A stretch of DNA of 33,510 bases from a virus (taxonomy: Duplodnaviria; Heunggongvirae; Uroviricota; Caudoviricetes), in the IMG/VR virus record IMGVR_UViG_2703718823_000008; one strand, 5' to 3'. Below the pieces are notes generated by a model. The model was not told the DNA's origin. It ran no database searches and was given only the letters and a program-made list of their open reading frames with translations. The position numbers were made by a program, and so were the translations under genes. Below are positions 18,219-22,790 of this stretch, piece by piece (position 1 is the stretch's first letter; every line of letters starts with the position of its first letter).

Positions 18219-20156
18219 GTGACTCTTAAACGGGCCTGCTCCCTGCTGACGGTGAAATCCTTCAGTGAGGATGAGCGGGTGATCACCGGGATTGCGTCAA
18301 CGCCTTCTCCGGATCGGGATGGTGACATCCTGGAGCCGGAGGGCGCGGAGTTTGGCAGTGCGATCCCGTTTCTCTGGCAGCATGACCATTCCCGCCCGGT
18401 GGGGCAGTGTACGGTGCGCCGGGTCAGCGAAGGGCTGGAAATCACGGCAACACTGGCGAAGCCCGTGCCGGATATGCCATCGCAACTGGCTGCCCGGCTG
18501 GATGAGGCCTGGGCGGCCATTAAGACCGGGCTGGTCAGGGGGCTGTCCGTGGGCTTCCGTCCTCATGAATACACCTTTCTGGACGGAGGCGGACTGCATT
18601 TTCTGCGCTGGGAACTGATGGAGGTGTCTGCCGTCACCGTGCCCGCGAATGCGGAATGCACCATCCGGACCATTAAATCTTACGACCGCCAGTTTTCTGC
18701 CGCGTCCGGCAACCGGAAACCGGTGGTGAAAATCGCATCTTCTGCCGGCGCTGCGGCACAGTCAACAACCGTTTTTCATAAGGAAAAGACCATAATGAAT
18801 ATTGGCGAACAGATTAAAAGTTTTGAAAACAAGCGTGCAGCGCTGGCAGCCTCCCTTGAGGAGGTCATGACCAAAGCCGCAGAGGAAGGGCGCACGCTGG
18901 GTGTGGAGGAGGAAGAGCATTACGACAACACCGCAGCGGAAATCCGTCAGGTGGATGCGCACCTGAAGCGCCTGCGTGAACTGGAAGCCGGTAAGGCCGC
19001 CACGGCGCAGCCGGTGAAACAGGCCGGTAACGGGAATGTGGCCGCGGTGGCTTCTGCGCCGGTGATCCGTGTGGAGCAGAAACTGGATAAGGGGATTGGT
19101 TTCGCACGTTTTGCCAAATCACTGGCTGCGGCTAAAGGTGTCCGCTCTGAAGCCCTGGAAGTGGCCCGTCGTCAGTATCCGGATGACAGTCGTCTGCATC
19201 ATGTCCTGAAATCGGCAGTGGGCGCGGGGACCACCACGGATCCGCAGTGGGCAGGCAGCCTGTCTGAATATCAGGAATACGCACAGGACTTTATTGATTA
19301 CCTGCGTCCTCAGACCATTATCGGGCGATTTGGTCAGGGCGGGATCCCTGCACTTCGTCAGGTGCCGTTCAATATCCGTGTGCACGCCCAGGTGTCCGGC
19401 GGTGCTGCCGGCTGGGTGGGTGAGGGTAAGGCAAAACCCCTGACGAAGTTTGATTTTGAATCCATCACCTTCAGTCATGCGAAGGTGTCGGCCATTGCGG
19501 TACTGACGGAAGAATTGATCTGTTTTTCCAGTCCGGCTGCTGATGCACTGGTCCGTAATGCGCTGGCGGAAGCGGTGGTGGCGCGTCTGGATACAGACTT
19601 TGTGGACCCGAAAAAAGCGGCGGTGGCAGATGTCTCCCCGGCGTCCATCACCCATGATGTGAAGGGCACGGCATCAAGCGGTAACCCGGATGCGGATGCA
19701 GAGGCTGCGTTTGGACAGTTTGTGGCAGCAAACCTGCAGCCCACCGGTGCGGTCTGGCTGATGTCCAGCACCAATGCCCTGGCACTGTCCATGCGTAAAA
19801 ATGCGCTGGGTCAGAAAGAATACCCGGACATGACCCTGCTGGGTGGCTCCTTCCAGGGGCTGCCGGTGATTGTCTCCCAGTACGTGGGTGACCAGCTGGT
19901 GCTGGTGAATGCCCCGGATATTTATCTGGCGGATGACGGCGGCGTGGCAGTGGATATGTCCCGCGAGGCATCACTGGAAATGCAGTCTGAGCCGACCGGC
20001 GACAGTACCACGCCGTCGCCGGTGGAGCTGGTTTCCATGTTCCAGACAGGCAGCGTGGCCATCCGTGCGGAGCGCTGGATCAACTGGCGTCGTCGCCGTA
20101 CCGCGGCGGTGGCGGTGATCACCGGAGTGAACTACGGCAGTGCGTCCGGCGGCTGA
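18219..20156 (+). CDS. Prohead protease (HK97 type) fused to major capsid protein (HK97 fold)
   Basis: 645-aa ORF; N-terminal about 190 aa protease-like, then coiled-coil scaffold-like segment and capsid domain; GGAGG SD at GTG start; internal in-frame ATG at 18795 with AAGGAAAAG SD. Confidence 0.85.
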   Translation: MTLKRACSLLTVKSFSEDERVITGIASTPSPDRDGDILEPEGAEFGSAIPFLWQHDHSRPVGQCTVRRVSEGLEITATLAKPVPDMPSQLAARLDEAWAAIKTGLVRGLSVGFRPHEYTFLDGGGLHFLRWELMEVSAVTVPANAECTIRTIKSYDRQFSAASGNRKPVVKIASSAGAAAQSTTVFHKEKTIMNIGEQIKSFENKRAALAASLEEVMTKAAEEGRTLGVEEEEHYDNTAAEIRQVDAHLKRLRELEAGKAATAQPVKQAGNGNVAAVASAPVIRVEQKLDKGIGFARFAKSLAAAKGVRSEALEVARRQYPDDSRLHHVLKSAVGAGTTTDPQWAGSLSEYQEYAQDFIDYLRPQTIIGRFGQGGIPALRQVPFNIRVHAQVSGGAAGWVGEGKAKPLTKFDFESITFSHAKVSAIAVLTEELICFSSPAADALVRNALAEAVVARLDTDFVDPKKAAVADVSPASITHDVKGTASSGNPDADAEAAFGQFVAANLQPTGAVWLMSSTNALALSMRKNALGQKEYPDMTLLGGSFQGLPVIVSQYVGDQLVLVNAPDIYLADDGGVAVDMSREASLEMQSEPTGDSTTPSPVELVSMFQTGSVAIRAERWINWRRRRTAAVAVITGVNYGSASGG

Positions 20157-20200
20157 GTCTGATAAGGAGGACGGGAGGCGTGCGCCTCCCGTAACAGGTT

Positions 20201-21732: not shown

Positions 21733-22790
21733 ATGAACGTGAACTGTCCATTATCCGTGCGCTGGGTGAAGAATTTTCCGCGGTGCTGGCGGATTTACAG
21801 CGCACATTTGAGGAGAAAATAGCCGCGCAGGCACAAACGTTTGAAGAAAAACTGGCTTCCCTGTCTGTGGTATTACAGAAGTGCGTGACGGGCGATGATG
21901 TGCGTCCGATGCTTGAACAGATAGTGAAGGAGGCGGTAAGCCATATTCCTGTTCCGCGTGACGGTCGTGACTACGATCCGGAAGTACTGCAGAAGGCGGT
22001 GAATGATGCGGTCGCAAATATTCCGCAGCCGGCGGACGGTAAAAGTCTCACCCCGGATGATNNGCGTCCGATGCTTGAACAGATGGTGAAAGAGGCGCTA
22101 AGCCATATCCCTGTTCCGCGTGACGGTCGTGACTACGATCCGGAAGTACTGCAGAAGGCGGTGAATGATGCGGTCGCAAATATTCCGCAGCCGGCAGACG
22201 GTAAAAGTCTCACCCCGGATGATNNGCGTCCGATGCTTGAACAGATGGTGAAGGAGGCGGTAAGCCATATTCCTGTTCCGCGTGATGGTCGTGACTATGA
22301 TCCCGATGTTCTGCAGAAGGCTGTTCTGGATGCGGTGAGTGCCCTGCCGGCTCCGCAGGACGGGCGTGATGCCACGGCACTGGAAATACTCCCCGCCATT
22401 GACGATCAAAAATCCTTTCCCCGGGGCACGTATGCCACACACCTGGGCGGACTCTGGCGGGCGTATGAAAAAACGCACGGGATGCGGGGATGGGAATGTC
22501 TGGTTGACGGGGTGGCGGATATTGACGTCAGCATGACGGGTGAACGGTTGTTCTCTGTGGTGGTCCGGCAGAGCAGTGGCCAGCGTACGGAAAAAACATT
22601 TTCCCTGCCGGTGATGCTCTACCGCGGTGTGTTCAGAGCCGGTGAAACCTACCACCCCGGCGATACGGTGACGTGGGGCGGCTCGCTGTGGCACAGCAAC
22701 AGTATGACCGGTGATAAACCCGGAGAAGCTCATTCATCAGGCTGGACCCTGGCTGCAAAACGTGGGCGGGATGCTGGAGGCGGAAAATGA
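21729..22790 (+). CDS. Head-module protein with three tandem about 54-aa repeats (function unknown; possibly decoration or scaffold-related)
   Basis: 353-aa ORF; repeats RPMLEQ-VKEA-SHIPVPRDGRDYDPEVLQKAVNDAVANIPQPADGKSLTPDD; two NN dinucleotides at equivalent repeat positions. Confidence 0.7.
   Translation: MNERELSIIRALGEEFSAVLADLQRTFEEKIAAQAQTFEEKLASLSVVLQKCVTGDDVRPMLEQIVKEAVSHIPVPRDGRDYDPEVLQKAVNDAVANIPQPADGKSLTPDDXRPMLEQMVKEALSHIPVPRDGRDYDPEVLQKAVNDAVANIPQPADGKSLTPDDXRPMLEQMVKEAVSHIPVPRDGRDYDPDVLQKAVLDAVSALPAPQDGRDATALEILPAIDDQKSFPRGTYATHLGGLWRAYEKTHGMRGWECLVDGVADIDVSMTGERLFSVVVRQSSGQRTEKTFSLPVMLYRGVFRAGETYHPGDTVTWGGSLWHSNSMTGDKPGEAHSSGWTLAAKRGRDAGGGK
21897..22340 (+). repeat. Tandem 162-bp in-frame repeats (about 2.7 copies) inside the CDS
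   Basis: Near-identical 162-bp periodicity; NN at 22062-22063 and 22224-22225 are exactly 162 bp apart. Confidence 0.8.

Follow-up and report, generated by a model that had tools for sequence, protein, structure and literature searches.

A protease-capsid fusion gene with a conserved internal start region in the head module of Stx-type Escherichia coli prophages

Described relatives and identity of the locus

In phage HK97, the portal (gp3), the prohead protease (gp4) and the capsid protein with its delta domain (gp5) are encoded by three separate genes, which follow the large terminase (TerL) in the order portal-protease-capsid, and the scaffold is the N-terminal domain of the coat protein. 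In phage lambda (C/Nu3), phage Mu (I/Z) and the herpesviruses (UL26/UL26.5), a long form joins a protease to the scaffold, and an internal in-frame start gives the bulk of the scaffold. Here we analyze the head module at positions 18219–22790 of a 33,510-nucleotide stretch of caudovirus DNA (IMG/VR record IMGVR_UViG_2703718823_000008; the whole stretch is called the window below). The same three protein families as in HK97 recur in it and, as in gp5, the scaffold is the N-terminal domain of the coat protein, but protease, scaffold and coat are joined in one open reading frame (ORF) of 645 amino acids (aa), and the portal gene lies 3′ of it. This gene probably makes two products, the coat protein being made also alone from an internal start. 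The nested product would consist of scaffold plus coat, whereas the coat gene is separate in lambda, Mu and the herpesviruses; the lambda C protease belongs to the S49/ClpP-like family and that of the window to S78. All comparisons were computational and based on sequence, and coordinates refer to the + strand of the window.

The locus is the head-morphogenesis block of a lambdoid prophage of Shiga toxin-producing E. coli (STEC), of the Pankowvirus type represented by YYZ-2008, 2851, 1717 and many Stx1a/Stx2c phages. These relatives carry the same genes in the same order and are 95–99% identical in DNA and protein. Over the 8 kb around the fusion gene, DNA identity with Stx1a-, Stx2a- and Stx2c-converting phages, phage 1717 and YYZ-2008 is 95–96%, and over 18219–22790 it reaches 99.9% with a prophage of E. 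coli STEC2018-607. Phage 2851 is inducible. The head module was found in 1256 of 5426 complete E. coli genomes, mostly in several copies, and is an ordinary, very abundant and previously annotated block of E. coli Stx-type prophages; Stx-phage records label the 645-aa gene “major head protein/prohead protease” or “phage major capsid protein.” An earlier note on this DNA had described the fusion, the internal start, a hairpin behind the capsid gene and a portal gene downstream of it. All four features lie where it placed them, but it missed the abundance of the module, the long-standing annotation of the fusion and the family-wide gene order, and it left out the small ORF 20201–20422 and the separate fiber-like gene 21729–22790.

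Both the fusion and the gene order are already known at the annotation level. In Pseudomonas phage PAJU2, a cultured temperate siphovirus, a 48%-identical homologue is annotated as “prohead protease fused capsid protein,” and ORF003–ORF008 are ordered as in the window (small terminase (TerS)-TerL-fusion-small ORFs-portal-ORF007-adaptor), with ORF007 a separate gene overlapping the portal stop, as in the window; PAJU2 differs in its host and in having two small ORFs between capsid and portal. A “major capsid and protease fusion protein” is annotated in actinobacteriophage clusters AU, AW and EE and in the RcC phages of Rhodobacter, and “major capsid and protease fusion” genes are routine in SEA-PHAGES genome notes. 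The curated NCBIfam model NF045541 (“prohead protease/major capsid protein fusion protein”) describes the same architecture, but the window protein scores 52.5 bits against it (cut-off 525), over aa 48–287 only, and belongs to a different sequence family. The literature covered, which did not extend to the original PAJU2 and phage 2851 papers, mentions capsid-protease fusions at the annotation level and contained nothing on an internal start, and no paper was found on a nested arrangement of two ribosome-binding sites for HK97-type fusions. The internal start is also unannotated in the records examined. The present analysis adds evidence for a nested pair of products, the family-wide conservation of a hairpin and a correction of the “frameshifted portal” annotation.

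The protease-capsid fusion gene and its probable internal start

Domain mapping of 18219–20156, which the earlier note had proposed as a check, bears out its reading that an HK97-type prohead protease is joined to a major capsid protein. In the N-terminal region, Pfam Peptidase_S78 (PF04586) matched aa 48–153 with 34.1 bits (cut-off 21) and PHROG 80 (head maturation protease) matched aa 1–281 (E = 2.6e-42). TIGR01554 (major capsid protein) matched aa 204–584 with 73.8 bits (cut-off 27.5), Pfam Phage_capsid (PF05065) matched aa 386–635 with 50.7 bits (cut-off 24.2), and PHROG 617 spans the full length of the protein. BLASTP aligned the fusion protein with HK97 gp4 (E = 1e-8), placing Ser110 on gp4 Ser114 and His55 one residue off gp4 His65, the residues that we take to be catalytic in gp4; both Ser110 and His55 are invariant across an alignment of 27 homologues at 36–77% identity. 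The capsid domain gave no significant BLASTP alignment with HK97 gp5, the two sequences being too diverged, and a search of the Protein Data Bank (PDB) with the single fusion sequence returned zero matches. A search with the family profile was required; it matched HK97-fold capsids (9d9w at 2e-17, 8gta and RcGTA 6tb9) and aligned profile positions 198–263 with residues 4–69 of the standalone capsid protein 9gyi (9gyi_B). These results show that the ORF is composed of a predicted S78 serine-protease domain, a variable linker, a coiled-coil delta domain and an HK97-fold coat domain. BLASTP found nothing in the fusion protein that corresponds to the C-terminal ~60 residues of gp4. This tail reportedly targets the free protease to the prohead, and it would be dispensable in a protease that is tied covalently to the delta domain.

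A homology search of 1.84 billion cluster representatives returned 1159 at E <= 1e-30, and the best 150 of them were nearly all full-length proteins of 630–680 aa at 38–54% identity. We fetched 80 genome loci from Enterobacterales, Pseudomonas, Burkholderiales, Rhizobiales, Rhodobacterales and Xanthomonadales, including a few metagenome-assembled genomes labelled as other phyla, with their binning unchecked. Protease and capsid are fused in 73 of the 80, from many orders, and as judged by these homologues the fusion is old and stable. The other seven (L090–L093, L096, L097 and L100), from Stenotrophomonas, Diaphorobacter, Falsirhodobacter, Devosia, Luteimonas and Brucella, have adjacent separate protease and capsid genes in different frames, and their capsid genes begin at query aa ~187–192; transitions between the fused and the unfused state have therefore occurred in the family. 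These unfused relatives, and ambiguous bases elsewhere in the window, might suggest that a sequencing error or mutation in a decaying prophage had joined two neighboring genes. We give this artefact practically no chance: the uninterrupted ORF occurs in a cluster of 9916 sequences, in many genera at 73–77% identity, in more than 1000 clusters at 50% identity, in the 73 independent fused loci and in the cultured phages PAJU2 and 2851, a breadth of conservation that refutes it. Two loci, L074 (about 7570) and L094 (about 7615), carry an in-frame stop just 5′ of the internal start, with homology going on beyond it; this stop could be decay or a natural same-frame unfused state.

The internal start was proposed in the earlier note as an in-frame ATG at 18795 with a strong Shine-Dalgarno sequence (SD). 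Both elements are present, but the SD is moderate, its duplex with the anti-SD amounting to -6.2 kcal/mol versus -10.3 kcal/mol for the long form. In an alignment of the 150 representatives, a single column just ahead of the delta helix holds Met in 123 of 151 sequences and Val in 10, and the linker around this column is gappy and variable. Across 81 mutually related loci at 38–100% identity, ATG stands at the first residue of the delta domain in ~77, and the four others have GTG (L054, L081) or TTG (L058, L073). Unfused capsid homologues begin at query aa 193–196. We scored the best anti-SD duplex in bases -20 to -3 of each internal start, with 1071 other in-frame ATGs of the same ORFs as the control. 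Duplexes of -4 kcal/mol or lower were found at 91% of internal starts versus 26% of control ATGs, and those of -6 kcal/mol or lower at 44% versus 8.6%; the medians were -5.7 and -2.5 kcal/mol, respectively (Mann-Whitney p = 1.4e-29). The SD varies by lineage (AAGGA, GGAGG, AAGGAGGG or GAGG) and the encoded amino acids differ, so the conserved object is a nucleotide motif and not a peptide. In 72 fused loci, a 60-nt segment centered on the internal ATG ranked, in the median, at the 98.8th percentile of its own ORF for weakness of structure, being 9 kcal/mol weaker than average and 15 points lower in GC (Wilcoxon p = 6e-14).

These signals suggest that the initiation region of a capsid gene has been preserved within the fused ORF over long evolutionary distances, and the simplest reason for its preservation would be use in translation. 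As expected of a nested pair, the boundary of the scaffold carries an in-frame start codon and a ribosome-binding site, and relatives share both. The comparison with related prophages that the earlier note had called for supports its suggestion that the internal start could give an unfused scaffold-capsid protein, through the start codon, SD and low structure in the 81 loci and through the seven split relatives.

Taken as a whole, we consider it likely that this STEC head module combines a two-product protease-capsid gene, an expression-buffering hairpin and a complete portal gene followed by a separate fiber-like gene. Initiation at 18219 would give a long form of about 70 kDa (protease-linker-delta-coat), and initiation at 18795 a short form of about 49 kDa (delta-coat) that would supply the bulk of the subunits. 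The two forms would co-assemble via their delta and coat domains, and the minority of coat subunits that bear the protease at their N-terminus would carry it covalently into the procapsid, a delivery that would stand in for the C-terminal targeting tail of free HK97 gp4. The copy number of the protease would be set by the ratio of the two initiation sites; after assembly, the protease would cut away itself, the linker and the delta domains. A bolder version makes this a “three-in-one” capsid gene, with dosage set purely by competition between the ribosome-binding sites and with covalent delivery on minority subunits, and adds that a run of five or six G residues (G5 or G6) at the end of the portal gene switches the fiber-like protein between a free and a portal-tethered state; we hold this version only tentatively, as falling somewhat short of an even chance.

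The alternative is that only the full-length 645-aa fusion is made, with a protease on every coat subunit, and that the internal ATG and SD are a relic of the ancestral capsid start or have been retained for other reasons, such as coding constraints in the linker or a translational pause. It could draw on the long-form start, which has a strong SD and is normally ATG, on the physical conceivability of a particle with protease and coat at 1:1 (an estimate, uncomputed) and on the short product being a predicted one. A relic should, however, decay at 38–50% protein identity, yet the start codon, the SD and the low-structure, AT-rich segment persist, and they do so in a linker that is otherwise unconstrained in its amino acids; the exceptions to ATG are GTG or TTG and not random codons. 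We regard the full-length product as an unlikely sole product on either account of why the internal signals were kept.

Several points nevertheless weigh against the two-product scheme. The 81 loci share ancestry, so that the p-values overstate their independence; the diversity of the SDs and their spread across orders argue, short of a formal phylogenetic test, for maintenance over inheritance. Of 69 relatives, 64 begin the long form with ATG, and its SD is strong, so that the ratio of long to short form is not predictable from sequence; the use of the internal start is itself something that we infer. On the protease side, TIGR01543 (prohead protease) scored only 46.6 bits, under its curated cut-off of 59, and the AlphaFold model of the fusion is poor (mean pLDDT 41, from a shallow alignment of 39 sequences at 73–98% identity). 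The model contains a beta-rich domain at aa 6–139, disorder at aa 139–193 (pLDDT about 26) and long helices from aa 195, of which those of the delta domain (aa 195–223 and 229–261) are the best-predicted part; its top Foldseek match, the T4 gp21 prohead protease (E = 3.5e-3, probability 0.99), is weak corroboration of the N-terminal protease. The hairpin, finally, may be a terminator, a stabilizer or an element of a ribosome-binding site. A bias toward the short form through the GTG of the long-form start was considered and rejected, this GTG being specific to the E. coli lineage.

The practical value of the two-product scheme lies mainly in annotation, as thousands of enterobacterial prophages carry a 645-aa “major capsid protein” gene that probably encodes two products. 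The nested start would be an expected extension of the lambda C/Nu3 principle and unsurprising to specialists; the three-in-one arrangement, if true, extends over many bacterial orders and more than 1000 protein clusters. Confirmation of the nested start would make the gene a compact single-gene system for self-assembling, self-maturing HK97-type shells and a clean test of protease copy-number control.

The portal gene and the fiber-like gene

The assignment of 20368–21732 as the portal gene is correct: the ORF matched PF04860 with 275 bits over 2–321/321 and TIGR01537 with 352 bits (cut-off 112) over 2–343/343, and BLASTP against HK97 gp3 gave E = 5e-24. The earlier note was also right that the portal gene follows the capsid gene, unlike in HK97 (TerL-portal-protease-capsid). 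The order TerL-fusion-portal-homologue of 21729–22790-adaptor was found in nearly all of the 80 loci, which, set against the HK97 order, makes a portal gene 3′ of the capsid gene, as judged across these loci, a hallmark of the whole family and not a local rearrangement.

On a near-identical genome, RefSeq/PGAP annotates one “frameshifted” portal pseudogene spanning 20368–22790, because YYZ-2008 and phage 2851 carry a single ORF of 859–861 aa in its place. By alignment, these two phages have G6 where the window has G5 and two genes. In 84 of 86 loci, however, the portal and the next gene are distinct, the stop of the first overlapping the start of the second (ATGA, TGATG or ATGnnnTGA), and the only fused portals are those of YYZ-2008 and a single Pantoea locus. 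Two genes are therefore the ancestral and normal condition, and the 454-aa product is a complete portal. In the 84 loci, the next gene lies at -1 relative to the portal in 50, at +1 in 26 and in frame with a gap in 8, and its SD is AGGGGGA in the window and AGAGGA in other genera. In IMG/VR, 83 contigs carry G5, of which 77 are split, and 41 carry G6, every one of them fused; an identical downstream haplotype occurs with both run lengths, 37 times with G6 and 23 times with G5 (loci L002, L003–L021 and L102–L204). These sequences point to recurrent one-base slippage at the G-run; homopolymer sequencing errors in drafts may add to the counts, yet finished genomes show both lengths.

The PGAP flag would be apt if 20368–21732 and 21729–22790 had once been a single gene of ~860 aa that was broken by the loss of a G. 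The single ORFs of YYZ-2008 and 2851, a fused cluster of 6387 members and the fact that the two states differ by G5 versus G6 all fit this account. It is improbable all the same: the genes are separate in nearly every locus, across many genera and in varying frames, the 454-aa product spans the whole HK97 portal model, the split state is the commoner one in IMG/VR (77 versus 41), and the G-run forms the SD in front of the downstream ATG, kept in both states. Since two genes are the rule in this family, the “frameshifted portal” calls for G5 alleles are in all likelihood mistaken. We give even less weight, and in fact very little, to a programmed -1 ribosomal frameshift at the G-run or at an A-run (A6, 21724–21729) that would join the portal to the downstream ORF. 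That ORF does lie in the -1 frame, and both homopolymers stand at the junction; but no X XXY YYZ heptamer is present in the zero frame, the frame relation (-1, +1 or 0) is unconserved, and in every locus the downstream gene is equipped with an SD and ATG of its own. The A6 run was rejected as the site, as an exact scan of IMG/VR for an A7 variant gave 0 matches and the alignment with YYZ-2008 places the difference at the G-run.

Comparison across the loci shows 21729–22790 to be a separate, conserved and, by its overlap, translationally coupled gene, and not a portal tail. The proteins of its family have an N-terminal coiled coil, a variable middle and a conserved C-terminal domain. The middle is made of 54-aa “IPxPxDG” tandem repeats in the window and of collagen-like G-X-Y in some members (Pfam Collagen in L084, E = 4.5e-16), and the C-terminal domain is weakly CBM5/12-like (Pfam, 26.7 bits in L048), with PDB profile matches to the chitin-binding domain of chitinase-60 (E = 4.6e-3) and to All3316 (9e-4). 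The product looks like a fiber with a carbohydrate-binding tip. A homology search with 21729–22790 retrieved mostly partial fused E. coli portals and no standalone homologues of any diversity, and an AlphaFold model of its C-terminal 154 aa, made with no alignment, was uninformative (pLDDT 36). The repeat copy number is highly variable in E. coli, the fused proteins ranging from 729 to 959 aa. Two NN pairs (22063–22064 and 22225–22226) lie 162 bp apart, at equivalent positions of repeat copies 2 and 3; a 99.9%-identical genome has GT at both sites (codon GTG, Val).

The post-capsid hairpin and the surrounding genes

The hairpin without a T-run that the earlier note had placed at 20173–20190 is indeed present and extends somewhat further on both sides (Table 1). 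The folding energy of the 50 nt around it is -22.3 kcal/mol (z = -3.2), a value equalled by 1 of 200 shuffled sequences. As an intrinsic terminator it lacks the T-run and was unreported by a consensus terminator scan. A GC-rich stem-loop right after the capsid stop was found in nearly all of ~75 loci of the family, with sequences unrelated between lineages; it is followed by a T-run in several of them (L032, L042, L051, L057, L091 and L096) but not in the window and its close relatives. HK97 is annotated with a “putative terminator” after gp5, in a comparable place. The hairpin likely sets capsid expression above that of the genes downstream. It would lower or buffer these low-copy genes through partial termination or through stabilization of the 3′ end of the capsid mRNA, in line with a stoichiometry of 12 portal versus about 415 coat subunits.

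In enterobacterial relatives (L022–L036), the capsid stop is followed by an SD (TAAGGAGG or GGAGG), the hairpin, 8–12 nt and the ATG of the small ORF. The SD is located ~30 nt from this start in the linear sequence, and in non-enteric relatives it lies 3′ of the hairpin. Folding of the hairpin might, speculatively, bring the upstream SD to a normal distance from ATG 20201. The small ORF is 52–58% identical across enterobacterial relatives and is conserved there only.

The late operon on the + strand of the window is an unbroken series of genes from the HNH endonuclease to the tape measure (Table 1), and the order HNH-TerS-TerL-protease::capsid-(small ORF)-portal-fiber-like gene-adaptor is fixed in the family. 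The HNH gene is kept in most enterobacterial and Pseudomonas relatives, and T-rich tracts or hairpins lie 5′ of the SD of the fusion gene in many relatives.

Table 1. Coordinates of the features of the head module and its neighbors in the window
Feature	Position	Strand	Remarks
HNH endonuclease	15279–15644	+	Directly 5′ of small terminase, as in HK97-like cos phages
Small terminase (TerS)	15934–16497	+	
Large terminase (TerL)	16494–18155	+	
Terminator-like hairpin and T-run	18180–18197	+	7-bp stem, then TTTTATTTTC; between TerL stop (18155) and fusion gene
SD AGGAGG, long form	18208–18213	+	Anti-SD duplex -10.3 kcal/mol; GTG start at 18219
Protease::delta-domain::major capsid fusion ORF, long form	18219–20156	+	645 aa, GTG start; full-length homologues in many genera
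HK97-family (S78) prohead protease domain (predicted)	18219–18686	+	aa 1–156; His55 and Ser110 invariant
Variable linker	18687–18794	+	aa 157–192, predicted disordered; gappy columns; harbors putative internal ribosome-binding site
Internal SD TAAGGA	18779–18784	+	Anti-SD duplex -6.2 kcal/mol
Nested in-frame ORF from Met193	18795–20156	+	Delta (scaffold) and HK97-fold capsid, 453 aa; putative short form
TAAGGAGG	20163–20170	+	Possible SD for ATG 20201; directly 5′ of hairpin
GC-rich hairpin	20171–20192	+	9-bp stem, 4-nt GUGC loop; 15 nt 3′ of capsid stop; no T-run
Small ORF	20201–20422	+	73 aa; PHROG 829 (no assigned function); overlaps portal start by 55 nt
HK97-family portal	20368–21732	+	Complete, 454 aa; ends where portals of other genera end
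G5 run	21713–21717	+	Part of SD AGGGGGA of next gene; G6 alleles fuse portal to that gene
Fiber-like gene	21729–22790	+	353 aa; overlaps portal stop (ATGA)
162-bp tandem repeat × 2.6	21894–22321	+	Inside fiber-like gene
Head-tail adaptor Ad1 (gp6-like)	22787–23113	+	Next gene of module
Head-closure, gp10-like, tail-terminator, major-tail, chaperone and tape-measure genes		+	3′ of adaptor

In the region of the window where Stx phages carry their toxin genes, the ORF list holds no ORF of at least 90 aa of the size of a toxin A subunit, no search aimed at stx having been made. This region (7431–7592, 8406–8618, 9088–9283 and 9348–9549) encodes tRNA-Met(CAT) and tRNA-Arg(TCG), followed by three copies of the small RNA family STnc100 with scores of 121–172 bits.

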